A DNA stretch of 64,000 nucleotides from contig CAYFNG010000005.1 of assembly GCA_964344385.1 (NCBI GenBank), positions 23,583 through 87,582 on the forward strand, written 5' to 3'. The DNA comes from an uncultured Sneathiellales bacterium (GTDB taxonomy: Bacteria; Pseudomonadota; Alphaproteobacteria; CAYFNG01). This document shows, piece by piece, positions 13,789 through 46,800 of the stretch (positions are counted from its first letter, which is position 1; every line of letters starts with the position of its first letter). The translations under genes and the position numbers were made by a program. Under the pieces are notes generated by a model. The model made no database searches and was not told where the DNA came from. It saw nothing but the letters and a program-made list of their open reading frames with translations.

Positions 13789-13814
13789 CTCATAACCCTC
13801 CTAGTGGATGAAAT

Positions 13815-15931: not shown

Positions 15932-16106
15932 GGGGCTGAGCCGGGCTTTCGGGCCCAGAACGTTTCGGGTGTATCGGGCCTGGTCGGCGATCCGTCACCG
16001 ACTGTGCTCGATCCGCCCGATATTTTTATTTATCTCCCACCATTGTCGACCTCGGCCCCGGGTTACAGTTCAAGGCAAAAGACCCTCCGAACCCCCGAGG
16101 ACCCGA

Positions 16107-16394: not shown

Positions 16395-16468
16395 GCGCCG
16401 GGCAACGGATTCATGATTGCACAACGAAATTTCGCAACAATATATAGGTGTGAACCAGGAAAGCCGAT

Positions 16469-16804
16469 ATGTTCTCATGGGGACGCAGACGAGCGGCCAA
16501 GCGCTATGCCAATGAGCTGGGGCCGCAGTTGATCAATGACTACGGCGCGTCGGAGACCTACACCGCCGGCCAGATCCGTTCGGCCGTAGCCCGCCTGGAG
16601 CTGCCGGAAAAATACCTCTGCTTCGGTTTTGCCGGGTTCATGGACGAGGCCGGCTACAATACCCAGCTCCGCGACCTGAGAAAGGCGCCGCCCTACGCCA
16701 TGGCCCGCAAGCTGTTCCAGCGCTATGTCCCGGTCCGTGGTTTTTCCGAACCCGCGCCGGCCCGCGTCAGCCCCTATATCCACACCGGCAGCAGCATTCG
16801 CTAA
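16469..16804 (+). CDS. Hypothetical protein (111 aa)
   Basis: ORF with normal codon bias. No family recognised. Confidence 0.4.
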   Translation: MFSWGRRRAAKRYANELGPQLINDYGASETYTAGQIRSAVARLELPEKYLCFGFAGFMDEAGYNTQLRDLRKAPPYAMARKLFQRYVPVRGFSEPAPARVSPYIHTGSSIR

Positions 16805-16805
16805 C

Positions 16806-16840
16806 CACCGGCGGAACCTGCATTTACACGTGGCGTGACG
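16806..16840 (+). repeat. Direct repeat DR-L (accacCGGCGGAACCTGCATTTaCaCgTGGCGtGAC) flanking a low-GC insertion. Contains an ECF-sigma-like GGAAC-N16-CGT motif
   Basis: 24 of 28 core positions are identical to the copy at 20286-20320. It sits directly after the stop of the 16469..16804 gene. Confidence 0.6.
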
Positions 16841-16970
16841 TGGGGCACGGGGCAATCTGCACAACACCGCCGGCGGGTCGCCCAGCAGCATCATGTATCG
16901 CGAGCCCAAGCCCACCCAAGCGTGGAAGTTTGCCTCGGAGTTGGGTTACAAGTTCGGTGTTCTTGGTCTG

Positions 16971-17273
16971 CTATGCAGTCGCAACGCTGTAGTCATCGAC
17001 AATTCGTGCGGTGCCGACCGTGGCCTCAAGGCGCAATGGCAGTATTTCGCGATAGGCGGGCGAATTGTACCACGCTTCCGCCTCATCCCGGGATTTGAAC
17101 CGGAGTACGATCGTTCGCGGAAAATCGGAACCGCCTTCGAGAATTGTGCTGTCCTCATCAAACACGAGCACTTCCCCGCCGCTTGCCTCGATAAGCGCAA
17201 AAGCCTCCCCGACATATTTCGCCATCTTCTGCGCATCGGTCACGACGTTGTTGAAAATCACATAGGTTGCCAC
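16971..17273 (-). CDS. DUF1330 domain protein
   Basis: GTG start after GAGGAAGAACAA. ...YVIFNNVVTDAQKMAKYVGEAFALIEASGGEVLVF... matches DUF1330 (dimeric alpha+beta barrel). Confidence 0.6.
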   Translation of the reverse strand: MATYVIFNNVVTDAQKMAKYVGEAFALIEASGGEVLVFDEDSTILEGGSDFPRTIVLRFKSRDEAEAWYNSPAYREILPLRLEATVGTARIVDDYSVATA

Positions 17274-17631
17274 TTGTTCTTCCTCAAAAAAGTATGGAAA
17301 TGGGGCGTTCGATCCCGGGTTGAAGGGGCGGCAATGCAATTGTGCCACATCGCCCAGAGTCGGCGGATGCCTCGCTGCCACGCAAGGGTCTCAATACTGC
17401 GACCGACCCCGAGCCGGCGCAACCAATTGTGCCCTGAAATCCGCAGAGTACGGGGTCCTCGGTCTCGACGTAAATGGCTCTCTCCCTCTCCAAGTAAAAA
17501 GCGTCCATTAAACCGAGGGGACTCCAATCTACTAGCGCGCCTGCTCCAAGAGAAAAATGGCCGGAGTTCACCCGGCCATTTTTGCGCTGCCAGTGAGATG
17601 GCAATTCCATTTTGGAAACCGGCGGCCCGTT

Positions 17632-17892
17632 TTAGGCACCGATCAACATGACAATCGTATCTGGTCGTACGCCATCATGCTTCATCGCCGCGGCACCAAC
17701 GTCGCTTTGCATGAGTGCGTCGAATGCGTCCATGTCATCAACGACCATGGTCAGGCCCACCTTGTTGGCGTCGGAGGGATGGACATAGGTCTCGATGTTC
17801 TCAGCGATGCCGGCAAAGACTTCCTGCCGCTTGGGGGATGCGAGCCAATGATCGACGTTGTCAACTTCATGCATGACGATAATATTTGGCAT
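17632..17892 (-). CDS. Small hypothetical acidic protein (86 aa)
   Basis: Strong RBS AGGAGA 7 nt ahead of ATG 17892. The opposite-strand ORF 17557..17943 is judged spurious. Confidence 0.55.
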   Translation of the reverse strand: MPNIIVMHEVDNVDHWLASPKRQEVFAGIAENIETYVHPSDANKVGLTMVVDDMDAFDALMQSDVGAAAMKHDGVRPDTIVMLIGA

Positions 17893-18035
17893 TGTTTATC
17901 TCCTGGTTCGTTAGAGGGATACGCATCGCTCAAGTGCGATTAGCGTGAGCCAACAGGCGGACGGATATTTGAGCCACCTGTGATGAGGTGTGAGAGGTCG
18001 CGGTGATGGGGCTTTGCTGCGGCTGGAAATAGATC

Positions 18036-19049
18036 TTAGATGTTCAGCACAGCCGCCGAGAGACGCCCAATGTGGGTATCGGCATACCGCCCGCCATCGT
18101 AAACCGTTGTTAGACGCGCTATGCGTCCATCGCTATCCAGTACGACCCCTGTGACGCCAGTGTTGACTGGAGCGGTTGCGGTGGCCGTCCATTCTATGGC
18201 ACCGCCATCGTCGGATCCGACAACATGCCGAAATACGACCCCCTTGCCATAGGGCAGCATCGGCAGGGCGCGCTTTAGATGCGCTTGAACCGCGTTGCGA
18301 CCGATCAACTGCGACCGCAAAGCCATATCCTCGAATACGACGTCGTATGCGAAAACATCACTCGCCTCAGCTTTCGGGTCGTTCTCGAATACCGCCAGTA
18401 GCTTCTGCGAGACATCCGCCATCTTGGCGGGGGTTGCGCTCGCAACTTCGGTTTGGCGGAAGTCGGTAAGTTGAGCCTTTTCAAGCCCATAGTCATTGGG
18501 CCAGTCGCGGCTGTCCCAATGGTCTATCCAGCGTATGATTTTGCCGTCCTTGAAATCGATAACCGCCAAGAGACGCAACTCGCCGCCAAACAATTCGGGT
18601 GTGTCTGTGAAGGCGACAAAGGCACCGCCCTGCATGTCGCCAACGATGCGTGTGGCGTACGACCTGGCAGTATCGGGCCAGTTCGGCATATATTGCGTGA
18701 AGACACCTTTGAGCGCTTCATAGCCGGCTATGTCCCATCCCAAAGTCGCGTCAATATAGGTGACGAGATCAGGCGAGAAGAACGACATGGTGGCGTCAAT
18801 ATCGCGGTTTGTCTTGGCTTCGAAAAAATCCGTCATGAAGGCTGCTAGATCAGGCGACGCGCCGGTTGTGTCGATCTGCGTTTCACGGCCAGCATCGGTG
18901 TGCGCACGGGCCGGCAGGTTGACTGTCATTGCTGCCATTGATCCCATAGCGGCAAGCTGAAGAAACCTCCTTCGCTGCGTGTTGATAGGCCCGGGGAAAC
19001 TGTCCAAATTCATTAGCTCTTCGTTAGAGCCAATATTTTTAAATCCCAT
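18036..19049 (-). CDS. Tat-secreted protein with tandem NTF2-like (SnoaL-like) domains
   Basis: Twin-arginine motif QRRRFLQLAAMG followed by an AxA cleavage site. Two NTF2/SnoaL-like repeats. Start uncertain (19049 or 19013). Confidence 0.6.
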   Translation of the reverse strand: MGFKNIGSNEELMNLDSFPGPINTQRRRFLQLAAMGSMAAMTVNLPARAHTDAGRETQIDTTGASPDLAAFMTDFFEAKTNRDIDATMSFFSPDLVTYIDATLGWDIAGYEALKGVFTQYMPNWPDTARSYATRIVGDMQGGAFVAFTDTPELFGGELRLLAVIDFKDGKIIRWIDHWDSRDWPNDYGLEKAQLTDFRQTEVASATPAKMADVSQKLLAVFENDPKAEASDVFAYDVVFEDMALRSQLIGRNAVQAHLKRALPMLPYGKGVVFRHVVGSDDGGAIEWTATATAPVNTGVTGVVLDSDGRIARLTTVYDGGRYADTHIGRLSAAVLNI

Positions 19050-19165
19050 GGTAGCGAGTCCTTCCGTTGCGTCCATTGTGGGCCTGGTGCCCAAACTGTG
19101 CTTGCGAATTGTGGACAGCTTGGGCGAAGCTGCACCATCACTCAAACGAATGGTTTTCAGGGGTC

Positions 19166-20116
19166 ATGAAGGAAATTCAGCTGCATCGGGTCGACCTCAA
19201 CCTGCTGGTCGTATTTGAGGCCCTGATGCTTGAAGGCAGTGTCGTCGGGGCAGCCTCAAAGCTGAACAAGACGCCTTCGGCCGTCAGTCACGCCCTTGCC
19301 CGCCTGCGTGACCAGGTGGGGGATCCGCTTATGGTCAAAGTCGGCGGGCGGATGCAGGCCAGCCCGTTTGCACTTCAACTTATTGATGATGTCCGGCCGA
19401 TTTTGCGCAGCATCAAACGTGTGCTTGAGCTGCCGGAACCTTTTGATCCTGCCGCCAGCCAGCGCACGTTTCGAATAGCGAGTCCGATTGCGGGGCAGGT
19501 ATTGTCCGATGTCGTGAACCAAGTCGGCCGAGAAGCGCCGAACGCATCCATCGAATGGTTATCGACGCCGCGAGAAGTCTATGCAGCCGTCTCCGAGGGG
19601 ATGATTGACCTGGCGCATTTGGGTGGCGAGCGCAGCCTCCCCGATGGCCTCGAAGAAGCTGAGATGCCTGCGTTGAACTTTGTGAGTTTTGTGCGCGAAG
19701 GTCACCCAGCAATAGCGGACTGGGGACCTGAGGCCTGGCAACATTTCAACCATGTTCAGGTCGCGATTGGCAATGAGGTTCGAAGCCCCGTCGATAGCGC
19801 TGGGACAGGCGCAACTGGCGAGCGGAAGATTGGTGCCTTGATTTCCGAGTTCGCTGCTGTCGGACCACTCCTCGCCAGCAGCAACATGATTGCCACGCTT
19901 CCCACCATGATCATGGCAGGGGATATTCAGAAATACGGGCTCAGACCTATGCCATCCCTGTTACCAATCCCACCGTTCCGTGCACGCTTTTTTTGGTCGT
20001 CGCGAACCGCCAACGACCCGGCTCTGGTCTGGATTCGGGACCTCGTTCTGAACGCCTACCGCACGGCGCACGAAGAGGCCGAATCAATTGTACAGAGCGC
20101 GCTGAACGCTTCTTAA
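19166..20116 (+). CDS. LysR-family transcriptional regulator
   Basis: N-terminal wHTH LNLLVVFEALMLEGSVVGAASKLNKTPSAVSHALARLR, then an LTTR substrate-binding domain. Divergent from the NTF2-like gene. Confidence 0.85.
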   Translation: MKEIQLHRVDLNLLVVFEALMLEGSVVGAASKLNKTPSAVSHALARLRDQVGDPLMVKVGGRMQASPFALQLIDDVRPILRSIKRVLELPEPFDPAASQRTFRIASPIAGQVLSDVVNQVGREAPNASIEWLSTPREVYAAVSEGMIDLAHLGGERSLPDGLEEAEMPALNFVSFVREGHPAIADWGPEAWQHFNHVQVAIGNEVRSPVDSAGTGATGERKIGALISEFAAVGPLLASSNMIATLPTMIMAGDIQKYGLRPMPSLLPIPPFRARFFWSSRTANDPALVWIRDLVLNAYRTAHEEAESIVQSALNAS

Positions 20117-20285
20117 AAGCGGCTTTTACAAGTCGAGACTCCTCGAAACATAGAGGGCGCCGGCTTTCGCATCAGCCGTGCGATCCAGCAGAGAGGGTTT
20201 GTCTTATGATTTCTCTATCGGTCTGGAAGGACATCGAAACGGCTCGTAACCGAGGAAACAGATAACAGCTGAAAACTGGCTGACC

Positions 20286-20320
20286 ACGGGCGGAACCTGC
20301 ATTTGCCCATGGCGCGACCC
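20286..20320 (+). repeat. Direct repeat DR-R (accacGGGCGGAACCTGCATTTgCcCaTGGCGcGAC). Probable native promoter region of the ComM/YifB gene
   Basis: Same 35-bp motif as 16806-16840. Located 60 bp upstream of the 20380 start. Confidence 0.6.
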
Positions 20321-20379
20321 GCAACCAGCCTGTACCATGTTTCGGTTGTGTCTTTGTCTGTTTAACAACGCAAACCGGG

Positions 20380-21909
20380 TTGGGTGACATGGTCGCGCGG
20401 GTCAGTACGGTGGCGTTCCAAGGGATCGAAGCCAGGGACGTCGACGTCCAGGTGCAGGTGGCGTCGGGCATCCCGTCCTTCGCCATTGTCGGCCTGCCCG
20501 ACAAGGCGGTGTCGGAAGCCAAGGAGCGGGTCCGGGCCGCCCTGGGCGCGGTCGGCATGGCCTTGCCGCCGAAGCGGATCACCGTCAACCTGGCACCGGC
20601 CGACCTGCCGAAGGAGGGCAGCCACTACGACCTGCCGATCGCGGTCGGCCTGATGGTCGCGCTGGGCGTGCTGCCCGGTGATGCCATCGCCGGCTACACG
20701 GTGCTGGGGGAGCTGGCGCTGGACGGCGCGATCAGCACCGTGGCCGGAACCCTGCCGGCGGCTCTGCAGGCCTCGGCCCAGGACCGCGGCATCATCTGCC
20801 CGGCGGCGTGCGGCGGCGAGGCGGCCTGGGCCGGCGAGATCGAGGTGCTGGCACCGGCCGGCCTGTTGGCCCTAGTCAACCACTTCAAAGGATCCCAGGT
20901 GCTGAGCCCGCCGGAACCGCGCCTGGCCGATGACAACCCGAGTGTCCTGGACCTGAAGGACATCAAGGGCCAGGAGACCGCCAAGCGGGCCCTGGAAGTG
21001 GCGGCGGCCGGCGGACATAACCTGTTGATGGTGGGACCGCCCGGCGCCGGCAAGTCGATGCTGGCGGCCCGGCTGGCCGGCCTGCTGCCGCCGCTGGACG
21101 CGGCCGAGGCGTTGGAGGTCAGCATGATCGCCTCGGTCGCCGGCCTGTTGGGCGATGGCCGGTTGAGCCGCACCCGCCCGTTTCGCGACCCGCACCATTC
21201 CGCCTCGATGCCGGCGATGATCGGCGGCGGCACCAGGGCCCGGCCGGGCGAGGTCAGCCTGGCCCATCTTGGGGTTCTGTTTCTGGACGAACTGCCGGAA
21301 TTCCCGCGCCCGGTCCTGGATTCCCTGCGCCAGCCGCTGGAGACCGGCGAGGCGGTGGTGGCACGGGCCAACGCCCATATCCGCTATCCGGCCCGGGTGC
21401 AATTGGTGGCGGCAATGAACCCCTGCCGCTGCGGCTATCTGGGCGACCCGGAGCAGGCCTGCACGCGGGCGCCGCGCTGCGCCGGGGAATACCAGTCGAA
21501 GATTTCCGGCCCCTTGTTCGACCGCATCGACCTGCATGTCGAGGTCCCGGCGGTCGCCGCCACTGATTTGAGCCTGCCGCCGCCGGCCGAGGGGACGGCC
21601 GAGATCGCCGCCCGGGTCGGCCTGGCCCGCGACCTCCAGCGGACGCGCTACGCCGAACGGGGCAATGGCGCGGTCATCCGGACCAATGCCGAGGTTGACG
21701 GCGAACTGCTGATGGACGTGGCCGCCCCGGATGATGCCGGCAAGCGGCTATTGGCCGAAGCCACCGAAGCCATGCGCCTGACCGCCCGCGGCTACCACCG
21801 GGTCCTCAGGGTCGCCCGCACCCTGGCCGACCTGGAGGGCACGGACGCCGTCCGCCGCCTCCATATCGCCGAGGCCTTGAGCTACCGGCGGATCCTGTTG
21901 GGACGGTGA
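20380..21909 (+). CDS. comM: YifB/ComM-family Mg-chelatase-like AAA+ ATPase
   Basis: N-terminal Lon-SSD-like domain. Walker A GPPGAGKSM and Walker B VLFLDELPEF. C-terminal ChlI-like domain. Confidence 0.9.
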   Translation: MGDMVARVSTVAFQGIEARDVDVQVQVASGIPSFAIVGLPDKAVSEAKERVRAALGAVGMALPPKRITVNLAPADLPKEGSHYDLPIAVGLMVALGVLPGDAIAGYTVLGELALDGAISTVAGTLPAALQASAQDRGIICPAACGGEAAWAGEIEVLAPAGLLALVNHFKGSQVLSPPEPRLADDNPSVLDLKDIKGQETAKRALEVAAAGGHNLLMVGPPGAGKSMLAARLAGLLPPLDAAEALEVSMIASVAGLLGDGRLSRTRPFRDPHHSASMPAMIGGGTRARPGEVSLAHLGVLFLDELPEFPRPVLDSLRQPLETGEAVVARANAHIRYPARVQLVAAMNPCRCGYLGDPEQACTRAPRCAGEYQSKISGPLFDRIDLHVEVPAVAATDLSLPPPAEGTAEIAARVGLARDLQRTRYAERGNGAVIRTNAEVDGELLMDVAAPDDAGKRLLAEATEAMRLTARGYHRVLRVARTLADLEGTDAVRRLHIAEALSYRRILLGR

Positions 21910-32257: not shown

Positions 32258-32953
32258 CTACGACTTGGCCGGCTTCTTGGCCGATTTGGCCTTGACTGCC
32301 TTGGCCTTCAGGGCCTCCAACTCGGCCTCGACCTTGGACTCGACCTCCAGGTCACCGAATTCCTCGGCCAGGCTCTTCTTGCGTTCACCGCCCAGATCAT
32401 AAGCCTCGACCTGCCCGTTCACCTCGTCCAGCTTCCTTTCCATATAGTCAAAGCGGTCGATCACGTCATCGACCTTGCGATTGTGCAGTTCGACCCGCAC
32501 TTTCAGCCGGTTGCCGGCGGTCTTGGTCCGCATGGTCATCGCCTTCTGGCGCGACTTGGCATGATCGAGCTTTTCCTGCAGCTTGGCGATATCGTCGCTG
32601 GCCTTGGCCAGGTCTTCGTCGATCCGGGCCATGTCCTCGTCCAACTGGTCGCGGGTTTCGACCAGCTTGGCCTTGGCGACCAGGGCCGCCTTGGCCAGGT
32701 CTTCGCGGTCCTTCTCCAGCGCCAGTTCCGCCTTGCGCTGCCATTCGTCGATCTGGGCGGTCAGCCGCTCCCGCTGGCGTCCCAGTTCCTTGGTCTCGGC
32801 GATGGTGCGGGCGGCGCCCGAGCGGGCCTCAACCAGCGTGTCCTCCATCTCCTGGATCATCAGCCGAACGATCTTTTCCGGATCCTCGGCCTTGTCGAGA
32901 ATGGCGTTGACGTTGGAATTGATGATGTCGGTGAGGCGCGAGAAAATGCTCAT
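32258..32953 (-). CDS. pspA: Phage shock protein A (PspA/IM30 family)
   Basis: MSIFSRLTDIINSNVNAILDKAEDPEKIVRLMIQEMEDTLVEARS…, a canonical PspA coiled-coil protein. Confidence 0.95.
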   Translation of the reverse strand: MSIFSRLTDIINSNVNAILDKAEDPEKIVRLMIQEMEDTLVEARSGAARTIAETKELGRQRERLTAQIDEWQRKAELALEKDREDLAKAALVAKAKLVETRDQLDEDMARIDEDLAKASDDIAKLQEKLDHAKSRQKAMTMRTKTAGNRLKVRVELHNRKVDDVIDRFDYMERKLDEVNGQVEAYDLGGERKKSLAEEFGDLEVESKVEAELEALKAKAVKAKSAKKPAKS

Positions 32954-33177
32954 CTGTCCTGTTCCGTGGTCTTGGCGGCACCGCCCATCGGCGCCGTCAT
33001 TTGGGGTTGGTAACTGAGGTCCGGTGCCACATCCTGGACCCGGCGCAGGTCAGCCAGCCAGACAAAGGCCAGCAGGATCAGGGGCACCGCGATCACGCCG
33101 ACCAGGACTTGGGTGATGGCCCGTGGGTCGATCATCGATCCGGCCCTGCCTGCACCACTGGTCGCGCTCTGCATCTG
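32950..33177 (-). CDS. Small single-TM protein, translationally coupled (ATGA) upstream of pspA
   Basis: ORF ending 4 nt into pspA. One TM helix (ITQVLVGVIAVPLILLAFVWLADL). Lies downstream of the sigma54 promoter. Start uncertain (33177 or 33135). Confidence 0.35.
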   Translation of the reverse strand, partial: QMQSATSGAGRAGSMIDPRAITQVLVGVIAVPLILLAFVWLADLRRVQDVAPDLSYQPQMTAPMGGAAKTTEQDR

Positions 33178-33247
33178 CACCCTCCTGTCGTCGGGACGGT
33201 CCGTCTCTGCGGTTCCGTCGCTTGCCCGATACATAGCAGGGAGCGTG

Positions 33248-33263
33248 CCAATTCGGGCCGGCC
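33248..33263 (-). promoter_or_regulatory. Sigma54 promoter of the psp operon (minus strand TGGCACG-ctcc-cTGCt)
   Basis: The reverse complement of 33248-33263 reads TTGGCACGCTCCCTGCT: perfect -24 and a GC at -12 with correct spacing. Sits in the divergent pspF-pspA intergenic region. Confidence 0.65.
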
Positions 33264-33378
33264 AGATAAGGCATTGAAATTTATGGGTAAAATTCCGGAC
33301 CGATTTTTGACTTCTTGATATAGTGGTGAAAATCGCTAAATAAATGGTGAGAAAAACCTATTAATCGATTTTTTTACC

Positions 33379-34353
33379 ATGGACCTGCCGCAGATCGTCG
33401 GACAATCACCGCCCTGGCTGGAACTGCTGGAGCAGATCAGCCGGGTCGCGCCCCTGGACAAGCCGGTGCTGGTGATCGGCGAACGCGGCACCGGCAAGGA
33501 ACTGATCGCGGCCCGGCTGCATTTCCTGTCGCAGCGTTGGAACGCGCCGTTCGTCAAGTTGAACTGCGCCGCGCTGCCCGAGACATTGCTGGAGACCGAG
33601 CTGTTCGGCCATGAAGCAGGCGCCTTCACCGGCGCCGGCAAGCAGCGCCTGGGCCGTTTCGAACTGGCCGATGGCGGCACATTGTTCCTGGACGAGATCG
33701 CCAACGCCTCGCTGGCGGTCCAGGAGAAGATCCTCAGGGTGATCGAGTATGGCGAGTTCGAGCGGGTGGGCTCCAGCGCCACGCAAAGCGTCGATGTCCG
33801 GGTGATCGGCGCCACCCATGTCGACCTGCCGACGGCGGCGCGGGCCGGCCACTTTCGCGAAGACCTGCTGGATCGGCTGGCCTTCGATGTCGCCACCGTG
33901 CCGCCGTTGAAGGCGCGGGGCGAGGATATCCATTTGCTGGCCCGGCATTTCGGGGCCCGTATGGCGCGCGAGTTGGAACTCGAGAGCTTCGCCGGGTTCG
34001 CGCCTGAGGTCGAAGCCGAACTGGCCGCTTACCGCTGGCCGGGCAATGTCCGCGAGCTTCGCAATGTGGTCGAGCGGGCCGTCTATCGCCAAGCCGACCC
34101 CGAGGCGCCGATCGCGGCCGTCGTCTTCGACCCCTTCGCCTCGCCCTACCGACCGGGGCGGCCGGACCCGGAAGACGCGAAAGAGGCGCCAGAGGAGCCC
34201 TACGACTTCCAGGCCCGGGTCCGCGACCTGGAAACCGATTGGCTGGGCGCCGCCCTGGCCCGCAACCACCACCACCAACGCCGCACCGCCGAATTCCTGG
34301 GCCTGACCTATCACCAGCTGCGCGGCTACATGCGAAAATACGATTTACCTTAA
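33379..34353 (+). CDS. pspF: Psp operon transcriptional activator (sigma54 enhancer-binding protein without a regulatory domain)
   Basis: AAA+ sigma54-interaction domain starts at residue ~5 (VLVIGERGTGKELIAARLH, GAFTGA present, ESFAGFAPE). C-terminal HTH. Divergent from pspA. Confidence 0.9.
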   Translation: MDLPQIVGQSPPWLELLEQISRVAPLDKPVLVIGERGTGKELIAARLHFLSQRWNAPFVKLNCAALPETLLETELFGHEAGAFTGAGKQRLGRFELADGGTLFLDEIANASLAVQEKILRVIEYGEFERVGSSATQSVDVRVIGATHVDLPTAARAGHFREDLLDRLAFDVATVPPLKARGEDIHLLARHFGARMARELELESFAGFAPEVEAELAAYRWPGNVRELRNVVERAVYRQADPEAPIAAVVFDPFASPYRPGRPDPEDAKEAPEEPYDFQARVRDLETDWLGAALARNHHHQRRTAEFLGLTYHQLRGYMRKYDLP

Positions 34354-37966: not shown

Positions 37967-38958
37967 CACAAGGACCCGTGTGCCGGACGGGACGAGCCAT
38001 ACCAAATCTTCGGTCGCTGCCCGAGCTGCCGGTCCCATTTCACCTGTTCCCCGACCACCCTTGGATCAATTGGCCGTTATGCCAATTGGCCGAAGCGGAG
38101 ATGCGGCGGATTATGCCGCCGGCTGGAAACATAACGCGCTGCATGACACGATCACGGCCCGCGCCCTGGTCTCAAGCATGAACCGAATCGTCAGTGGCGC
38201 CGGCAACCAAGGCTACTTTGCCTGGGGCAACGACACCGGCATCCGCGGCGAACCACCTGAGACCGTGCCGCCGCCTTGACTGAACTCGTTTTAGGTGTGT
38301 TTCTTTAATTTTTGTTAATCTATGTCAAAGACGCCGGATCCGCGTTTCCGATAATTGTTAACCATATTCGACGGGCATGGCGTCCCCGAATACTTGGCGG
38401 GGCCAACCCGTTGCACATGGGCATCGTGAGACACGCCGGAAAATCATGGTGATTTGCTAAGTCGCCTTGGTCAATTGTATTTTCTACCGTCTGAATGGGT
38501 GAAATTTGTGATGAATTTGGAACAGTAGCGGAAATTCGGCACACCGGGAGAGATTACATATTGCTTGCAGCTACGTAGTTTGGTTTAGTGAAACTGAGCT
38601 TGAAAAACGTCAGGCCAGAATAGTTAAATATAGTTAACGCACAACTTGCCGTTTATCTTAAATTTTGGCCGGTGTGCAATAAAGGCAGTAGTAGAAACAA
38701 TAAAAACAAGGCTCGACCGGCCCTGCACAGCATCCGAATCGGTTGTTAAGAGGGCGTTTTAGGTTCGCAGCCGGACGGTGACAAAGTCTATTGGTCACTG
38801 CACTTTTGGCGTGAGGCGGCAGGGGACGCTGACAGCAGTCGGGACGGCTCCCGTGGTACCTAACTGGGTCAGAAGGGCAGGATATTGATTACACAAGGCA
38901 TTAGAATCACCGTCACAGTCGGCACCGGCATCCGGGCGCCATTTGCTCCGGGCAACGG

Positions 38959-40185
38959 TTGACCATGGACGCATACACGGATACGACCGGCCGAAGTGAA
39001 AACCCGGCTGGCACCACGCGTGCCCGGCTTCGCCAATTGGGTGTCGATGAACTCTCGGAGTTGATGCTTGAGGTCGTCGGCGACAATATCGACGCCATCG
39101 ACCGGCTGCAGCAAGCGGTGCAGAAACGCGAGGGCGCCCCGGAACCGTCCCCGGTGCAGGAACCGGAAAGCGAGCAGTTCATGGTTGGCAGCAGCCCAGC
39201 CATGCGGCGCGTGTTCGACCGCATCCGACGGTTCGGTGCCACCGACGCGCCGGTTCTGGTATTGGGGGAGAGTGGCACCGGCAAGGAACTGGCCGCCCGG
39301 GCGATCCATGAGCGGTCCCGGCAAGCGAACGCACCCTTCGTTGCCATCAACTGCGCCGGCCTGCCGTCCAGCCTGATCGCATCGGAGTTGTTCGGGCACG
39401 AAAAGGGCGCGTTTACCGGCGCGACCCAGCGGCGCATCGGCCGAATCGAAGCGGCCGCCGGCGGCACCGTGCTGTTGGACGAGATCGGCGACATCCCGAT
39501 AGAACTGCAACCGTATCTTTTGCGATTTCTCGAGGAAAAAACGATCGACCGGGTTGGCGGCACCCATCCGATCGAGGTCGACGTCCGGGTCGTCGCCGCC
39601 ACCAATACCGACCTCAAAGTGGCGATCGAGGAAGGCAGATTCCGCGAAGATTTGTTTTATCGCCTGAACGTCCTGACCCTGGAGCTGCCGGCGCTTCGGG
39701 AACGCAGCGACGATATCTCTTTAATTAGCCGATTTTTTCTTGAGAAATTTGCCCGCGAAATGGGGCGGGAAGACTGCCGGTTTTCCGACAGCGCCATGGC
39801 GGCGATTCGCAGCCATGTCTGGCCGGGCAATGTCCGTGAACTGATCAGCCGGGTTCGCCAAGGCGTGGTGATGAGCGAGGATGGTTGCCTGACCGTCGAG
39901 GACCTTGGCCTGCCGCAGTCCGTGGCACCGATCGAGAGCGTATCGGGCAGCGACGACCTGGACAGCCTGATCGCCCAGGTGGGAACGTCGCACCTGCTTC
40001 CCATCCTCGACCAGGCCCGCTACCAGCTGGAAGGCAAATTACTTCGGCGGGCCCTGGACCAAAACAACGAGAACGTCAAGAAAGCAGCGCAGGATTTGGG
40101 GGTGTCGCGGGTCACCCTGTACCGGCTGATGGAAAAGCACGGAATCCAGCGCACCAAAACCGTTCGGGCAGCCACAACACGATAG
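38959..40185 (+). CDS. Sigma54-dependent transcriptional activator (bEBP) with a short N-terminal domain and Fis-type HTH
   Basis: AAA+ sigma54 domain: Walker [45 protein letters not shown]-terminal [27 protein letters not shown]. Preceded by a 680-bp AT-rich non-coding region. Confidence 0.9.
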
Positions 40186-40484: not shown

Positions 40485-41777
40485 TTGAAGCTCAGTCGAG
40501 GGAATGGATGCACGGTGGCGGGCGCCGCCTTGGTCCTGGCGGCAACGGCCGCCATTCCACCTGGAAAAGCCGGCGACCTTTCCAACAGCCAGTTGGAATT
40601 GGACCGGCTGCGCCAGGAAATTGCCGCCGAACGCCAGCAACTGGCCGATCAGCAACAGGCGCTGGAGCGACAGTACGAGGCGCTGCAGAATCAACGTGAC
40701 CGACTCGAAGCGCTGGAAGCCCAACTTGATGGCGTCGGTGGTCCGCGGATTGAACGGGCCGGCTATCGGGTGCCGTCCACGACACGGGATCGCATGCGGG
40801 ACGGCGGCAGGCGGACGCAGGTGCAGACCACACCGCAGGCCGGCGAAGCGCCGTCCGAAGAGCGGCCCCGGGTCCAGGCGCTGGTGGAATCCGGCGGCGT
40901 GTTGCTGCCCCAGGGTAATTTCGTCCTGGAACCGTCGTTCGAATATGTGCGAAGCGACGTCAACCGGGCGGAGATCGTCGGCTTCACGGTGCTGCCCGGC
41001 ATTGTCGTCGGCAACATTTCCGTGGTCGAGGCCAACCGTAACACCTATGTCGCTGCTTTGACCGGCCGGTACGGCGTCACCGACCGGCTGGAGATCGAGG
41101 CCAAGGTACCCTATGTGATGCGCGATGATAGCACGACGACCCGTGAGATCGGGCAGGGCGCATCGGCAGACGTTGTCACCAGTGCCGACGGCAACGATGT
41201 CGGCGACATCGAAGCCGCGATCCACTACCAGCTGAATCAGCCTTCCGCCGGCAAGCCCTATTTCGTCGGCAATCTGCGTGTCAAATCCCGCACCGGCACC
41301 GACCCGTTCGAGGTGCCGCGCGACGCGACCACCAATGCCGAACTTGAGTTGCCAACCGGCACCGGTTTTTGGGCAATCGAACCAAGCGTGACCGCCATCC
41401 TGCCGTCGGACCCGGCGGTGCTTTACGGCAATCTCAGCTATCTGTGGAACATGGAGCGCAACATCGGCGGCCAGTTCGGCAAGATCGACCCCGGCGATGC
41501 CATTGGCCTGAATATGGGTTTGGGTATCGGGTTGAACGAAGACCTGTCCTTGAGCCTTGGGTACGATCACAAAGTGGTCGGCAAAACCACGCAGAACGGC
41601 CAACGCTTGACCGGATCGGACACCCTGCATGTCGGCAAGATGCTGTTGGGCAGCACCTATCGGATGTCGGATTCCACGTCGCTGAACCTGTCCTTCGGTA
41701 TCGGCGTCACCGACGATGCCCCGGACTTCGATTTTGTCGTGCGCTGGCCGATCACGTTCGGCGATCCGGACGACTAG
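40485..41777 (+). CDS. Outer-membrane protein with N-terminal coiled coil and C-terminal beta-barrel (FapF-like architecture)
   Basis: Probable TTG start 5 nt after AAGGAGG. Signal peptide (AGAALVLAATAA). Heptad coiled coil QLELDRLRQEIAAERQQLADQQQALERQYEALQNQRDRLEALEAQL. Pro/Gly linker. ~290 aa of alternating beta strands ending …FVVRWPITF. Confidence 0.7.
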   Translation: MKLSRGNGCTVAGAALVLAATAAIPPGKAGDLSNSQLELDRLRQEIAAERQQLADQQQALERQYEALQNQRDRLEALEAQLDGVGGPRIERAGYRVPSTTRDRMRDGGRRTQVQTTPQAGEAPSEERPRVQALVESGGVLLPQGNFVLEPSFEYVRSDVNRAEIVGFTVLPGIVVGNISVVEANRNTYVAALTGRYGVTDRLEIEAKVPYVMRDDSTTTREIGQGASADVVTSADGNDVGDIEAAIHYQLNQPSAGKPYFVGNLRVKSRTGTDPFEVPRDATTNAELELPTGTGFWAIEPSVTAILPSDPAVLYGNLSYLWNMERNIGGQFGKIDPGDAIGLNMGLGIGLNEDLSLSLGYDHKVVGKTTQNGQRLTGSDTLHVGKMLLGSTYRMSDSTSLNLSFGIGVTDDAPDFDFVVRWPITFGDPDD

Positions 41778-42010: not shown

Positions 42011-42568
42011 TCAGAAACCAAGCGTCAGTTGGTAGCTCAGATTGTTGATCGTGGTGGCCAACCGGGAACTGATCACCGCGGTATTGAAGGTATCGACGGT
42101 GATCTTGCTGATGTTCTGAATATTTACATTGTCCCGAGTGTTCTGGACCAAGGTCAGGACACCGCTGAAGTCGTCAAAACTGACTGCCGAGTTTCCGTCG
42201 CCCACCTGGGTCACTTGGGTGACGCCATGGTCGGTGATTTCCACGCCCGGCGGCGGCGTGCCACGGGTCAGGTCTTCGGACGTGAAACTGTAACGGACCC
42301 GGTCTTCGCCGTTGATCCGCCTGAGGATCTCGACGCCGAAACGGAAACGGAAGCCGCCGCGGGTGAAGCCGCCGCGCATATTGTCCAGTTCCTGGTCGCC
42401 GACCTTGGCCATCCCGGCGAAGGGATTGTCGCTCGATGCCAAAGCGGCAGCGGCCGGATTGCCGACTGCGGAGAAACCCAACAGGAGCAGCGCGACAACC
42501 AGGCCCGCCAGTCCGTTGGTCGATAGTTTGTTCCAGCTTGTCATTGTCATTATCCCCCTCCCAGCCAA
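42011..42568 (-). CDS. Secreted curlin-repeat protein (minor amyloid subunit, FapE/CsgB-like role)
   Basis: Signal peptide. Canonical curlin motif TQVTQVGDGNSAVSF (Q-x-G-x-G-N-x-A). Gln/Asn/Thr-rich C-terminus ending in F. Confidence 0.65.
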   Translation of the reverse strand: MAGRGIMTMTSWNKLSTNGLAGLVVALLLLGFSAVGNPAAAALASSDNPFAGMAKVGDQELDNMRGGFTRGGFRFRFGVEILRRINGEDRVRYSFTSEDLTRGTPPPGVEITDHGVTQVTQVGDGNSAVSFDDFSGVLTLVQNTRDNVNIQNISKITVDTFNTAVISSRLATTINNLSYQLTLGF

Positions 42569-42572: not shown

Positions 42573-43268
42573 CTAGAAGTCGCCGGTGCCCGGCAGCAAC
42601 ATGGTGAATGTCGCCAGGCCCTGACGGCTAAGTGCGGAACCGAATGGTGCCTTCTGGCGAACCAGCCAGTCCTCTTTCTGGTTGAAATGGGTCTTGGCCA
42701 GCGGAATATTCTGGGTTACGACGAACAGGATGCCGTTCCACATCGCTTCGAATTCAGCCCGGTTATAGGTCTTGGTGCCCAAGGCAGGGTCACCGACCAG
42801 GATTTCATCGTCGCTCAAACCCTTGACGACGACGAAGTGACGGTAGCCGCGAGTGGTGATCAGGGTAATCGCGGGAATGCCCACCTCCAGCAGCTTGTCC
42901 AACGGTGCCCGGAAACCGTCCGACTGGATATTGCGGCGGTTCAGGTACTGTTTCATATCCAGAAGCGAGAACCCTTCCTTGCGGATTTTCGTCTGGTCGC
43001 CGGTTTGGTACATATCCTTGAAGACGGCCTGTTCGGTGACCGGGCTGTCATAGTGATGCGACAGCAAGGTCGCGATCGCCGCCGAGCCGCAACTGAAATC
43101 ATAGGCCTGCTTCACCACGTTGCGAAACCGCGCTTCCTTAAGGCTGACGATCGGCAGCGAGAAATCCCCGCCGACCCCAAACACCGGAAGTGACGCGGCA
43201 CCCGCGTCCCGGCCTTGCAGGCCGAAAAGCAGGAAACCCACCAATATCACGTTGAGGAACGGTCGCAT
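42573..43268 (-). CDS. Periplasmic peptidase C39-like cysteine protease (FapD-like)
   Basis: Signal peptide. Catalytic Cys in FSCGSAAIATLLSHHY, catalytic His in GYRHFVVVKG, and a downstream Asp (LVGDPALG). No ABC-transporter domain. Confidence 0.85.
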   Translation of the reverse strand: MRPFLNVILVGFLLFGLQGRDAGAASLPVFGVGGDFSLPIVSLKEARFRNVVKQAYDFSCGSAAIATLLSHHYDSPVTEQAVFKDMYQTGDQTKIRKEGFSLLDMKQYLNRRNIQSDGFRAPLDKLLEVGIPAITLITTRGYRHFVVVKGLSDDEILVGDPALGTKTYNRAEFEAMWNGILFVVTQNIPLAKTHFNQKEDWLVRQKAPFGSALSRQGLATFTMLLPGTGDF

Positions 43269-43326: not shown

Positions 43327-43692
43327 TTAGTGGTGGTTGATGGTCACGATCGTCGCGGTTTGAATGACGACGTTGTTGCCCGAGTTCTGGATCACCGTGG
43401 CAATGCCCGAGGCGCCGGAAAACGCGGCATCGACAATGGTGTTGGAACGTGTGGATCCATTGTCGATTGCCGTATTGTCGTGGTGATCGCTGTCGAACAT
43501 GTGATCGAAATCGAAATCGTCCGAGCCACCGCGAACGGTGGCCAGATCGCTCAAGGCCACCTTCTGTCCGGCACCGACCAGGGCATCCAATCCCGATTCG
43601 CTGGACAACTCGCCGCCAAAGGCTGCGCCGCCAAACCCCATGACTGCCAACAGAACGAACGGTCCCATTCGGGTTATGTAGGTCGTTCTCAT
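43327..43692 (-). CDS. Small secreted curlin-repeat protein (nucleator-like, CsgB/FapB analogue)
   Basis: Signal peptide, then a single repeat …SGASGIATVIQNSGNNVVIQTATIV… resembling the repeat core of the adjacent giant protein. Confidence 0.6.
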   Translation of the reverse strand: MRTTYITRMGPFVLLAVMGFGGAAFGGELSSESGLDALVGAGQKVALSDLATVRGGSDDFDFDHMFDSDHHDNTAIDNGSTRSNTIVDAAFSGASGIATVIQNSGNNVVIQTATIVTINHH

Positions 43693-43736: not shown

Positions 43737-43768
43737 GCGGCTGGCGGAGGTGTGGTTCCGCCAGCCGC
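43737..43768 (-). terminator. Intra-operon hairpin (12-bp perfect stem GCGGCTGGCGGA/TCCGCCAGCCGC) right after the giant repeat-protein gene, followed by CUUUUCC
   Basis: Located in the 85-bp gap between the major-subunit gene stop (43778) and the next gene. Typical differential-expression attenuator of fimbrial or amyloid operons. Confidence 0.55.
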
Positions 43769-43777: not shown

Positions 43778-45757
43778 TCAGTAGTTGGCAACAACGCTGA
43801 TTGCCGACTGGATGGCGTTGTTGTTCCCGTTGTTTTGCTGGACGACCATCACACCCGCGGCACCCATGAAGGAGCCCGAGACCGTGTTCAGGAAGCCCGG
43901 CGCACCGACCGTCGGCTCGACGATCGACGTGTTCCCGGAAACCGTAGCGCCCAGTGCGGCCATCGAACTTGCCGGCCCGAACCCGAGGCCGCCGCCGCCG
44001 CTGTCATCGACGATGACCGCATTGGCCGAACCCATGACGTTGTTGTCGCCATTGTTCTGCTGCAGGGTCATGATGCCCGCGGCACCGTTGAACGCACCGC
44101 CTGACACACTGTTGGTGCGATCGACGAATTCGGTCGCGATCGCCCAGTTCTCGGTCACTTCAGCGTTGCCATAAGCGGCGTTCGATGCCCGGTTGGCGGT
44201 ATGGTCAGCGCTGCCGAGATTGGCAACCACCGCGTTGGCCGCCTGGATGACGTTTTGGCTGCCATTATTCTGCTGCACCGTCAGCACCCCGGCGGCATTG
44301 CCGAAGGAATTGGTCACGGTGTTGCCGCGGTTGGAGGCCCAGTCGCGGGTTTCAACGCCCGACACCATGCCTTCATTCGATGCCGTGGACCAGTTGACCA
44401 CATCCGTGTTCTCGTGGCTGCCCACATTGGCGACCACCGCGGTGGCGGCGCCCATCATGTTGTTGTCGCCATTGTTCTGCTGGACCGTGGCGATGCCTTC
44501 ATAGCCGTTGAACGACGGGTTGATCAGGTTGCTGCGATCCAGGTCGTCGCCAGCAGCCGACATCTCGGTCGACATCGTCGTGCCTTCGATGCTGCCATAG
44601 TTACTGGCCGACTGGGTCCGAACCCGTTCAAAATCGCCGTCGATAATGCCGGTCGTATCGATATTGGCATTCACCGCCGTCGCACCGGCCATCACGTTGT
44701 TGCTGCCGTTGTTCTGCTGCACGGTGGCGATGCCGGCGGCGCCATTGAACGAATTGGTCACCGCGTTGTCGCGGTCGCCCCAGGCTTCCTGCCGAACGTC
44801 GAGTCCCCGCAGAAGGCCCCGGTTGCCGGCCGAAGTGTCGGCATCCTGGTCCACCGTGCTGGGTGCCGGAAGGTTGGCGTTGCCCAGATTGCCGACCACA
44901 CCGGTCGCCGCCGACAGGACATTGCCGTCGCCATTGTTCTGTTGAACCGTGGCTACACCGCTATAGCCGTCGAACGAGCTGTCGATGGTGTTGTCACGTG
45001 ACTGGCTGCGGTCGACGATGGCCTGATTCCCCACCGAACCACCGGCTGAAACCGACTGCCCCACTCGTCCGGCACCCATGTTCATGAACACCGCCGTGGC
45101 CGCCGACATCGCATTGCCGTTGCCGTTGTTCTGCTGCACCGTGGCGACACCGCCCGCGTTGTTGAACGACGGGTTGATCAGGTTGCTGCGGGCGCTTTCC
45201 TCATCGACCAGGAAACGGCTGTCGTCGCCGCGCTGGGCTGAGGTGTTGCCTTCGGCGCTGACCGACTGGCTGGCGTTGCCGCGGCCGCCGGTTCCGGTGT
45301 GGACCGCCGTGGCGGCACCGATTTCGTTGTGGTCGCCGTTGTTCTGCTGAACGGTGGCCACACCGAAATAGTCTTCGAAGCTGTTGAGGATTTCATTGTC
45401 GCGGGTGCCGCCCACATTGACCGTCTCGTTGTCAAATGTGTTCGAATATACGGCCGCGCCGCCGCCAATATTCTGGTTGTTGGCGATATTGGCGTGGGCC
45501 GCCGTGGCCGCGCCAATCGAGTTGTTGCTGCCGTTGTTCTGCTGCGCGTGGGTGATCCCGGCCGCGCCGTTATAGGCACCATTGTTTATGGTATTCAACC
45601 GCGTGCTGCCGTAGTCGGCGGCATAGTTGCCGGAAACGGTTTCGTCTTCGGCACCGACAGAAGCATCGGCGATCGGTTCATCGGCCCAAGCCTGCGTCGC
45701 AGTCCCAACCGTCAATGCGATGGCCGAGGCACCCATTAAAAGGAGACTTTTCCTCAT
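43778..45757 (-). CDS. Giant secreted curlin-repeat protein (660 aa; 9 tandem ~70-aa repeats with core SF-G-AGxATVQQNNG-x-N-x-AATAV). Putative major amyloid subunit
   Basis: ATG 45757 after AGGAGA. Signal peptide MRKSLLLMGASAIALTVGTATQAWA. Nine QQNNG(D/S/N)xN cores. Ser/Asn/Gly/Ala/Thr-rich low-complexity sequence ending in Y. Confidence 0.85.
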   Translation of the reverse strand: MRKSLLLMGASAIALTVGTATQAWADEPIADASVGAEDETVSGNYAADYGSTRLNTINNGAYNGAAGITHAQQNNGSNNSIGAATAAHANIANNQNIGGGAAVYSNTFDNETVNVGGTRDNEILNSFEDYFGVATVQQNNGDHNEIGAATAVHTGTGGRGNASQSVSAEGNTSAQRGDDSRFLVDEESARSNLINPSFNNAGGVATVQQNNGNGNAMSAATAVFMNMGAGRVGQSVSAGGSVGNQAIVDRSQSRDNTIDSSFDGYSGVATVQQNNGDGNVLSAATGVVGNLGNANLPAPSTVDQDADTSAGNRGLLRGLDVRQEAWGDRDNAVTNSFNGAAGIATVQQNNGSNNVMAGATAVNANIDTTGIIDGDFERVRTQSASNYGSIEGTTMSTEMSAAGDDLDRSNLINPSFNGYEGIATVQQNNGDNNMMGAATAVVANVGSHENTDVVNWSTASNEGMVSGVETRDWASNRGNTVTNSFGNAAGVLTVQQNNGSQNVIQAANAVVANLGSADHTANRASNAAYGNAEVTENWAIATEFVDRTNSVSGGAFNGAAGIMTLQQNNGDNNVMGSANAVIVDDSGGGGLGFGPASSMAALGATVSGNTSIVEPTVGAPGFLNTVSGSFMGAAGVMVVQQNNGNNNAIQSAISVVANY

Positions 45758-45902
45758 CGTGTTTCTCCTAGTGACCTTAACGTTTGTCAACTGGGCGTCT
45801 CCTCGGCTGGAGGGTCGGCCCCCGAGAGCGTCGACACTCGCCCCTATCGCACCTGGTTTCAGCGGATCGGGCGCATGTGTAGCGGCGCTCGCCCACCTAC
45901 CT

Positions 45903-45918
45903 AGCAAAGCTTATGCCA
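45903..45918 (-). promoter_or_regulatory. Sigma54 promoter (minus strand TGGCAT-aagct-TTGCT) for the curlin-repeat operon
   Basis: Exact -24/-12 spacing (GG and GC 10 nt apart). ~135 nt upstream of ATG 45757, in an AT-rich leader. A sigma54 activator gene is 6 kb away in the same cluster. Confidence 0.7.
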
Positions 45919-46233
45919 TTTGGTCTATTTTTGATAAGTAATTGTTTTTATTTATGTTTATTGCGCCTGGAATCAACGCAGCAAGATATATGTAAATGTC
46001 TTGTAACTAATGGTTAAGGCTACCGAGCCGGATATTTACCTAAAATTAGCTATAAACGGACGTTTTCTGCGAACGATTCGCAATTAGGCGGGGTTGACAG
46101 TGTTACAGCAACGTTACACTCAAGGGTGAGCCCCCGCTTTCCCGGTATCGATCTGTTAACCATGCCGACAATCGGCACAAAAAGGCCGTCGCGCGGGTTC
46201 TGCGCGACGGCAGGAAAACCGGAAGTCTGGTGT

Positions 46234-46572
46234 TTATTGGCGGCCCGAAATCGAACTGGAAATCTGATTCGATCCGATATTCCGCGGCAATGTCTGACCA
46301 GCCGGTTGCGGCGGCTTGAATTCGTCCCACAGGATGACGGCCACACCCGTCTCGTTGCCGGAAGCGCCCGGCGCACCGAGGTTTTCGCCTGCCCGCTGGC
46401 GCGAGAGCTCGTCCATGGCAACCGCTTGGCCACCAAGCGGGGAGATCTGGGCGCTGGCCAAGTGCAATAGTCGATCTTCGGCCGCGACCGGGCCGGAAAG
46501 CATGGCCAGACCAGACAGCGCCAGCACTGCTGTCGCGGCCTTGAGGCAGGGTCGAAGAATTCGCTTCACCAT
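46234..46572 (-). CDS. Small secreted protein (112 aa, signal peptide), candidate accessory component of the amyloid locus
   Basis: Signal peptide LALSGLAMLSGPVAA. Preceded by its own sigma54-type promoter. Confidence 0.5.
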   Translation of the reverse strand: MVKRILRPCLKAATAVLALSGLAMLSGPVAAEDRLLHLASAQISPLGGQAVAMDELSRQRAGENLGAPGASGNETGVAVILWDEFKPPQPAGQTLPRNIGSNQISSSISGRQ

Positions 46573-46637
46573 AGCGAACGTCCCACATTCGTTCCTTTAC
46601 ATCGGCCGCCGGGATCGCCGCGACCACCCCATATTAT

Positions 46638-46653
46638 GGCAAACTTCATGCCA
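46638..46653 (-). promoter_or_regulatory. Second sigma54 promoter (minus strand TGGCAT-gaagt-TTGCC), upstream of the 112-aa secreted protein gene
   Basis: Same TGGCAT -24 element and exact spacing as the promoter at 45903-45918. ~55 nt upstream of ATG 46572. Confidence 0.6.
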
Positions 46654-46800
46654 AATTTTAACCCATACGAGAGATTTGCGCCCTTTCGCAGTTTCCGGCC
46701 GATTCAAGCAGGCCGGACCCGATCCGGAGTGCTCGGGCAGCGTAACCCGCGGTTTACACCCACCGATCGCACCGTCGGCCGGGCCGTTTGGTTCGTTCGG

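Follow-up and report, generated by a model that had tools for sequence, protein, structure and literature searches.

How is the expression of a Fap-like fibre locus controlled in an uncultured Sneathiellales bacterium? The locus lies in a 64-kb stretch of contig CAYFNG010000005.1, hereafter called "the window", and all positions below are window positions. An operon for fibre subunits and the upstream gene of a small secreted protein, p112, are both read from the minus strand, and a gene for a bacterial enhancer-binding protein (bEBP) lies in the neighbourhood. A preliminary description of this DNA proposed that two matching sigma-54 promoters, one ahead of the operon (P1) and one ahead of the p112 gene (P2), form a dedicated regulon together with the bEBP. 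We consider, with a probability of about 0.8, that P1 and P2 are genuine sigma-54 (RpoN) promoters of the fibre locus, which are silent until the neighbouring bEBP acts. The promoter predictions are supported by sequence footprinting, by about 33 loci with a P1-type motif, and by the motif ahead of 11 of 11 p112-family genes. The proposed regulon is supported by the linkage of a bEBP gene in about half of the related loci, by TGTNAC(A) hexamers at P1 (degenerate at P2), and by the precedent of Pseudomonas fluorescens PF07; the assignment of P2 to this bEBP is what we infer from these data.

Do the two motifs stand out from the surrounding sequence? On the minus strand, positions 45918-45903 read TGGCATAAGCTTTGCT and positions 46653-46638 read TGGCATGAAGTTTGCC, and in both cases the GG and GC doublets are 10 nt apart, exactly as first described. 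The end of the motif is separated from the ATG by 145 nt in P1 (ATG at 45757) and by 65 nt in P2 (ATG at 46572), and the distances of 135 and 55 nt given earlier are borne out when counted from a start site placed about 11 nt past the GC. We scored candidate sites out of 11 against the consensus TGGCAY-N5-TTGCW, with GG and GC fixed, and used a threshold of at least 10/11 in the comparative scan. P1 is the sole perfect match (11/11) in the window, and P2 scores 10/11. The exact motif TGGCAT-N5-TTGC occurs twice in the window, as compared to 0.16 expected occurrences, and two or more occurrences were found in none of 100 dinucleotide-preserving shuffles (0/100). When one mismatch to TGGCAY-N5-TTGCW is allowed, there are 7 sites in the window against 3.4 expected. 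Both P1 and P2 are intergenic and lie on the sense strand, and the motif-to-gene distance in the family ranges from 17 to 135 nt. The P1/P2 pair is the longest direct repeat in the surrounding kilobase; its likeness ends at the boxes, and we therefore do not regard the two promoters as a duplication.

Two points of the preliminary description had to be revised. The TGGCAT box is not unusual, as had been stated: in an alignment of 36 sites, consisting of 35 P1-type sites and the P2 of the window, the sixth position is T in 15 and C in 21. Similarly, the AT-rich surroundings with possible IHF sites, described for both promoters, are present at P1, where the DNA is 68% AT as compared to 36% for the window and contains one IHF-like site, but not at P2, where it is 39% AT and an IHF-like site was not found.

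Is P1 retained in other genomes? Through the alignment of homologs of the operon's peptidase, we fetched 80 genomic loci (L001-L080) from Alpha-, Beta-, Gamma- and Deltaproteobacteria, and oriented each of them on the peptidase gene. The nearest relatives of the peptidase itself belong to Paracoccaceae, Kiloniellaceae and Rhodospirillaceae. On the operon strand, the density of motif matches at -3 to -1 kb of the peptidase gene is 33 and 25 per 100 kb, as compared to about 2-3 elsewhere, which corresponds to an approximately 10-fold enrichment, and a match is present in 39 of the 58 loci that have at least 3 kb of upstream DNA. In about 33 loci, which represent all four classes, the match lies 60-135 nt ahead of the first operon gene, encoding a repeat protein with a signal peptide. 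The closest relative of the window, L081, has a peptidase with 71% identity and comes from the same metagenome project (L082 is the same sequence). L081 retains TGGCACgcggtTTGCT and, immediately ahead of it, an IHF-like site and the A-rich tract; the rest of the region has diverged. The IHF-like site of L081, AAACAACAGGTTA, has the same mismatch at the same position as that of the window, which is weak evidence by itself.

P2 can be judged by the family of the gene that it precedes. A word-indexed homolog search with p112 returned only p112 itself. An exhaustive HMMER search retrieved five small homologs (among P0123-P0128) with 34-40% identity, a signal peptide and the invariant AVILWD motif, while the large proteins P0122 and P0127, which contain p112-like stretches, provided nothing informative. 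All five of the metagenomic homologs have an 11/11 motif (5/5), located about 60-105 nt ahead of the gene in four cases; in L093 it is nearer to the annotated start. The family profile places further p112-type proteins in five Fap-like loci, L001, L015, L068, L076 and L078, and the hhalign comparison of p112 with the L001 homolog yielded a probability of 92% (E 5.5e-7). In all five loci the p112-type gene adjoins the major-subunit gene and follows a 10-11/11 motif at a distance of 17-62 nt; L001 and L015 have the two genes in tandem, and in L076 and L078 they diverge. Altogether, a -24/-12 motif with a score of 10-11/11 precedes every p112-family gene with available upstream DNA, 11 in all, and the predicted two-promoter layout recurs in other Fap-like loci.

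Where would the activator bind? When the window was aligned with L081, the pattern TGTAAC-N5-KGTAAC stood out some 200 nt upstream of P1. Within the window it is found upstream of P1 only, at -200 and, inverted, at -89, with 0.01 occurrences expected for what is a post hoc pattern; the relaxed form TGTAAM-N5-KGTWAC, equally post hoc, has three matches against 0.01 expected, all of which lie upstream of P1 or P2. Among the approximately 1.3 Mb of fetched loci, the pair pattern otherwise occurs only in L081 (with L082) and in the deltaproteobacterial L018, in each case about 200 nt upstream of the locus's own P1. Taken by itself, the heptamer GTGTAAC is no rarity within the window, and the rarity is limited to the phased hexamer pair. 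An unbiased hexamer test on the 325 nt upstream of 33 P1-type promoters ranked TGTAAC at the top (16 of 33 versus 4.2%, p 5e-14), followed by TGTGAC and TGTCAC. Moreover, TGTNAC/GTNACA occurs 69 times upstream of the P1-type promoters, as compared to 11.1 ± 3.4 times in composition-matched resampling. These hexamers are often paired 10-12 bp apart, and their family-wide peak is at -120 to -90.

The enhancer candidates also connect the two promoters. In L076 (7753-8032) and L078 (8344-8637), the divergent p112-type and subunit-type promoters are about 250 nt apart, and a cluster of TGTNAC(A) hexamers lies midway between them. This layout looks like a bidirectional enhancer, and the midway position of the cluster argues that one activator serves both promoters. 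In L079, TGTAAC-N6-GTTACA is located at -135/-123, with the same layout as the candidate site for P2. We therefore regard the TGTNAC(A) hexamer pairs as the likely enhancer of this family, as predicted from their distribution. A 17-nt inverted similarity between the upstream regions of P1 and P2 was also considered as a shared site and was dropped, because 20 other pairs in the same kilobase are at least as good and it is absent from L081.

The activator that we presume for both promoters is the bEBP encoded on the plus strand. Its gene had been placed at 38959, and it is indeed there, but the likely start is the ATG at 38965 rather than the start of the longest open reading frame. The protein contains the Walker motifs, and its GAFTGA motif (at 39406) lies within PF00158. 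The short N-terminal domain that had been pointed out, then given as about 80 residues, was confirmed, with about 72 residues preceding the AAA+ domain. Of the 80 loci, 41 have a homolog of this bEBP (45-56% identity) linked to the peptidase gene, and the linked bEBPs are of two N-terminal types or more. In most beta- and gammaproteobacterial loci, the linked bEBPs (about 445 aa) carry an approximately 140-aa N-terminal domain with DFHTLPVD...LGHAYG. The bEBPs of the window and of L001, L006, L008 and L076, several of which are annotated as alphaproteobacteria, have a helical N-terminus of 62-82 aa with the motif LxxLGxDxLxxLLLE. The conservation of this N-terminus suggests a dedicated input to the bEBP. 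A few linked bEBPs seem to be devoid of an N-terminal domain; the choice of the start codon may have truncated them.

Does this organism use sigma-54 at all? A psp unit at 32950-34353 provides a reference within the window. The gene for a PspF-type bEBP (33379-34353, plus strand) diverges from TGGCACgctccCTGCT at 33250-33235 on the minus strand, which sits 61 nt before the gene for a 74-aa small membrane protein, followed by a canonical pspA. By its sequence this is a textbook sigma-54 unit, and it serves as an internal positive control for the use of sigma-54 by the organism.

Several observations weigh against our interpretation of P1 and P2. About a third of the loci with enough upstream DNA contain no match of at least 10/11, and rpoN was not found within the window. 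L081 has P1 yet encodes no bEBP, FapF or p112 within 10 kb. Some P1-type promoters, including those of L001, L002 and L006, have no TGTNAC at all, and the hexamer-pair pattern was partly derived from the same sequences in which it was counted, so the window statistics given above are inflated. P2 has the degenerate TGTAAA-N6-GTTACG only, with no strict TGTNAC, its upstream DNA shows neither the AT-richness nor the IHF-like site of P1, and a sigma-70-like element overlaps it. Finally, the p112 homologs outside Fap-like loci are without TGTNAC hexamers, and genes for TPR proteins follow in L090 and L092.

Some of these observations would be explained if both promoters were sigma-54 promoters and one or both of them were activated by another bEBP, either distal or specific for the p112 family, so that the locus would not be one regulon. 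A different upstream repeat, TTTGAGAC...CATG, is found ahead of the sigma-54 motifs in L090 (~300-520), L092 (~30-100) and L093 (~1-60), where p112 homologs lie outside Fap-like loci, and it suggests that the p112 family also occurs in a different context, under a different activator. The degenerate hexamer pair at P2 and the P1 of L081 with no linked bEBP point in the same direction, and a second bEBP, that of the psp unit, is encoded 5 kb away. Activators of the PspF type, however, are normally psp-specific. The linkage of the bEBP in 41 of the 80 loci, the family-wide enrichment of TGTNAC upstream of P1, the midway hexamer cluster in L076 and L078, and the position of all three pair matches of the window upstream of P1 or P2 all argue for the neighbouring bEBP, as does the precedent of brfA (PMC9207406). 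We consider the activation by another bEBP to be unlikely, although it is the best of the alternatives.

Could P2 mainly or additionally be a sigma-70 promoter, with a secondary or non-functional sigma-54 match and constitutive expression of p112? The sequence TTAAAA-17-CATAAT, with an extended -10 TG, overlaps P2 (46661-46633) and matches the sigma-70 consensus at 9 of 12 positions, and the AT-rich, IHF-like context of P1 is not found there. The specificity of such a scan is low, since 4 sites of this kind occur in 5.4 kb as compared to 1.5 expected, and a T-rich -12 flank of sigma-54 promoters can readily mimic a -10 box. In addition, the -24/-12 motif stands ahead of all 11 p112-family members, whereas no comparable overlapping -10 box was seen in the upstream sequences of the homologs (by eye, with no formal scan). 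This reading of P2 is therefore very improbable.

That the motifs are chance matches or a by-product of repeats with no promoter function is effectively refuted by the comparative data, and we give it almost no weight: antisense GNANAN/SNGSAT codons do mimic the motif in related loci, but the motifs of the window lie between genes on the sense strand, at distances expected of promoters, they are not reproduced as a pair in the shuffles, and they show position-specific conservation in dozens of loci and ahead of all of the p112-family genes. The same mimicry accounts for a smaller peak of motif matches on the opposite strand of the related loci, which we rejected as promoters because 27 of the 31 matches are the antisense of GNANAN/SNGSAT repeat codons. 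More generally, the antisense of GNANAN/GNTNAS/SNGSAT codons, for example in the repeat-protein genes of L003, L004, L011, L043, L066 and others, mimics TGGCAY-N5-TTGC and generates systematic false positives in sigma-54 scans. A second strict motif, TGGCATGAGTCTTGCA, present in three loci of Oxalobacteraceae (L054 at 5174, L074 at 4996 and L075 at 5169), was set aside as unrelated. It lies 11-12 nt before a ureB-like open reading frame, and it probably serves the nitrogen-regulated expression of urease, apart from the fibre locus.

Based on P1 and P2 as sigma-54 promoters under the neighbouring bEBP, we propose the following mechanism. The bEBP would bind to pairs of TGTNAC(A) hexamers that lie some 80-200 nt upstream of both promoters, and would oligomerise. 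It would then contact the closed complexes of the sigma-54 holoenzyme via DNA looping, which at P1 is probably aided by the AT-rich, IHF-like bend, and ATP hydrolysis would open the promoter. Transcription from P1 would produce an RNA with a leader of about 135 nt and abundant mRNA for the major subunit, most of which probably ends at the hairpin behind this gene. Read-through past the hairpin would supply the minor subunit, the FapD-type peptidase and the FapE-like protein. P2 would give rise to a p112 transcript, which we consider monocistronic because an intrinsic terminator follows the p112 gene. The FapF-type transporter would be expressed separately, probably together with the bEBP gene. 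The features on which this mechanism is built are listed in Table 1.

Table 1. Coordinates of the genes, predicted promoters and candidate regulatory elements of the Fap-like locus in the window
Feature	Positions	Strand	Details
bEBP, 406 aa, presumed activator of P1 and P2	38965..40185	plus	Helical N-terminus of ~72 aa, AAA+ (PF00158) with GAFTGA, HTH_8
FapF-type outer-membrane transporter	40485..41777	plus	Coiled-coil-like N-terminus and barrel; NCBIfam FapF 1.3e-52; PDB 5O65 1.3e-35
Secreted protein, 179-185 aa, FapE-like position	42011..42568	minus	Repeat-like C-terminus
C39 peptidase, FapD-type	42573..43268	minus	Pfam PF03412 4.6e-21; NCBIfam FapD 4.2e-46
Minor subunit, 121 aa, FapB-like role	43327..43692	minus	One repeat; tblastn matches between first gene and peptidase gene in most related loci
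Strong hairpin: stem of 12 bp (10 GC pairs), followed by CTTTTCC	43737..43768	minus	Directly 3' of major subunit gene
Major subunit, 659 aa, FapC-like role	43778..45757	minus	Signal peptide; 9 repeats G-[VI]-x-T-V-Q-Q-N-N-G-x-x-N
Conserved leader block ACCCTCCAGCCGAGGAGACGCCCAGTTGACAAAC, ~35 nt	45781..45815	minus	Near-identical in L081 (7450-7484), flanks diverged
P1, predicted sigma-54 -24/-12 promoter of the fibre-subunit operon, TGGCATaagctTTGCT	45903..45918	minus	11/11 match; kept in L081 and ~33 related loci
IHF-like site AAACAATTACTTA, 1 mismatch to WATCAANNNNTTR	45935..45947	minus	Inside 68% AT tract between enhancer and P1
Candidate enhancer site B for P1, inverted hexamer pair	45991..46007	plus	GTTACAagacaTTTACA on operon strand, at -89/-78
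Candidate enhancer site A for P1, TGTAACgttgcTGTAAC	46102..46118	minus	At -200/-189; same distance in L081 (TGTAACattctGGTAAC) and L018
Intrinsic terminator behind the p112 gene: stem of 10 bp (9 GC pairs), followed by CTTTTTGT	46185..46211	minus	
p112, 112-aa small secreted protein	46234..46572	minus	Signal peptide; invariant AVILWD motif (AVILWDE in family)
P2, predicted sigma-54 -24/-12 promoter of the p112 gene, TGGCATgaagtTTGCC	46638..46653	minus	10/11 match; motif before all 11 p112-family genes with upstream DNA
Candidate enhancer (upstream activating sequence) for P2, TGTAAAccgcgGGTTAC	46742..46758	minus	Degenerate TGTAAC-N6-GTTACA palindrome, ~100 nt upstream of -24 box

What kind of fibre would be made from this operon? 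The peptidase matches NCBIfam FapD with 157 bits, which is under the 330-bit equivalog cut-off, and the 430-aa transporter matches NCBIfam FapF with 179 bits, under the cut-off of 700 bits; its match to the solved FapF structure 5O65 covers residues 128-425. The 659-, 121- and 185-aa proteins have no match in Pfam, NCBIfam or the PDB, the solved FapC included. They are analogous repeat proteins, rich in N, Q and G, with one common repeat type, and orthologs of the 659-aa protein with the same repeats and the same C-terminus are present in L001 and L081. The gene order is p112 followed by major subunit, minor subunit, D and E, with F detached behind the bEBP gene, and it departs from the order fapABCDEF. 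We call the locus Fap-like by its machinery, with divergent subunits, and not Fap proper, because FapC, FapB and FapE are not recognisable by sequence. From the machinery and the repeats, we infer that the fibres are amyloid-like.

The fapF-type gene likely starts at the TTG at 40485 rather than at the start of the longest open reading frame, lies 300 nt downstream of the bEBP gene on the same strand, and is convergent with the operon. No sigma-54 motif had been noted upstream of it, and this stands: GG-N10-GC was not found in the spacer between the bEBP and fapF-type genes. The unit formed by these two genes could be assigned neither a sigma-54 motif nor a convincing sigma-70 promoter, nor a terminator. 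The bEBP gene is preceded by a gap of 680 nt (38280-38960), of which 38560-38720 is markedly AT-rich.

How might the ratio of subunits to accessory proteins be set? Of 32 related loci, 13 (41%) have a comparable T-tailed hairpin behind the first gene, as compared to 36 of 600 control windows (6%), and its stem in the family is often CCGGCGGG...CCCGCCGG. The hairpin after the major subunit gene is likely a partial terminator or attenuator, which would set the ratio of subunit to accessory proteins. In the leader, the conserved block is confined to the lineage of the window and L081, and it contains CCUCC, which may pair with a GGAG ribosome-binding site. The search of the whole window against Rfam gave no match, the leader included, and the P1 leader folds no better than its shuffles (z 0.63).

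What could p112 contribute to the fibre? The protein has no match to Pfam, NCBIfam or other curated families, the FapA models included, and its AlphaFold2 model is unreliable (pLDDT 53, pTM 0.16). In L081 the position of p112 is taken by an unrelated gene. The p112 family is not obligatorily linked to Fap-like loci, because its members outside such loci adjoin TPR genes. As a tentative idea, for which we would not claim even odds, the family may be an unrecognised accessory part of a Fap-like subgroup and the functional counterpart of FapA, acting as a periplasmic chaperone or inhibitor, or as a fibre-associated factor outside the cell. A common TGTNAC(A) enhancer would serve its co-activation by the bEBP subgroup whose short N-terminus (LxxLGxDxLxxLLLE) would receive a signal other than cyclic di-GMP (c-di-GMP). 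In L068 (Aidingimonas halophila), two Fap-like clusters lie within 20 kb (10001-20631), with two peptidases, two FapF homologs and two bEBPs, and the p112-family gene belongs to the second cluster.

How does this locus compare with known systems? In P. fluorescens PF07, the fapA-E genes are transcribed from a -24/-12 promoter that was mapped by 5' rapid amplification of cDNA ends and depends on rpoN and brfA (PMC9207406, PMC13101488). The brfA gene encodes a bEBP, adjoins the fap cluster and is convergent with it; its product BrfA is a sensor of c-di-GMP, and fapF is not induced along with the rest (PMC9207406, PMC13101488). The window resembles this arrangement in the -24/-12 promoter before the first operon gene, in the convergent adjacent gene for a Fis-family bEBP (here by position, with a predicted requirement), in a fapF that stands apart from the rest, and in the small secreted protein gene at the head of the locus, which is fapA there and p112 here. 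The two loci differ in that PF07 has one promoter, before fapA, whereas the window has two predicted promoters, with p112 on its own terminated transcript. Furthermore, p112 has no similarity to the FapA models, the order of the window is major-minor-D-E instead of A-B-C-D-E-F, and its subunits, unlike those of PF07, are not recognisable as FapC and FapB. BrfA has 441 aa and senses c-di-GMP, whereas the bEBP of the window has 406 aa with only about 72 N-terminal residues. The c-di-GMP contact residues of the FleQ type seem by eye not to be conserved in it.

In the 2013 survey, Fap was not found in Alphaproteobacteria, and a detached fapF with no recognisable promoters and the loss of fapA were known variations (PMC3792158). 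The system of the window is alphaproteobacterial and thus belongs to a class that was without Fap in that survey (PMC3792158).

A further likeness is to PspF and pspA, in which a bEBP with little or no N-terminal sensor is likewise encoded beside its target -24/-12 promoter with AT-rich upstream DNA. PspF, which regulates a membrane-stress operon, is itself under the trans control of PspA. For the Fap-linked bEBP, in contrast to PspF with its anti-activator PspA, no candidate for such a protein was identified. In Pseudomonas and Geobacter, PilR and sigma-54 drive pilA, the type IV pilin gene, which encodes the highly expressed major subunit of a fibre. PilR binds short TGTC-containing repeats about one helical turn apart, and a hairpin after pilA sets the stoichiometry. 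The likeness to the locus of the window comprises the sigma-54 promoter on the major-subunit gene, which is a predicted one in the window, the phased upstream repeats and the hairpin after the subunit gene. PilR differs in being a response regulator that has a receiver domain and works with a partner kinase, PilS, and the fibre type and the secretion route also differ from those of a Fap-like system. Curli, encoded by csgBAC/csgDEFG, resemble the locus in their major and nucleator subunits, dedicated outer-membrane channel and tight transcriptional control, but their machinery is not homologous. They are controlled by CsgD, a LuxR-type regulator, with sigma-S/sigma-70 promoters and not by sigma-54 (PMC9207406).

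The locus is a variant of the published RpoN/BrfA design, largely expected, and no new kind of system. The regulation of Fap-type amyloids has so far been worked out in one Pseudomonas strain only, and our comparison suggests that the control by sigma-54 and a dedicated bEBP is ancestral and widespread across the family based on FapD and FapF, including divergent alphaproteobacterial systems with subunits that cannot be recognised as FapC. To the published design, our analysis adds the family-wide conservation, a candidate enhancer consensus of paired TGTNAC(A) hexamers spaced by about one helical turn, a hairpin that recurs after the major-subunit gene, and the p112 family. The candidate enhancer, the hairpin and p112 provide handles for annotating such fibre systems, or for switching them on in uncultivated or silent hosts.

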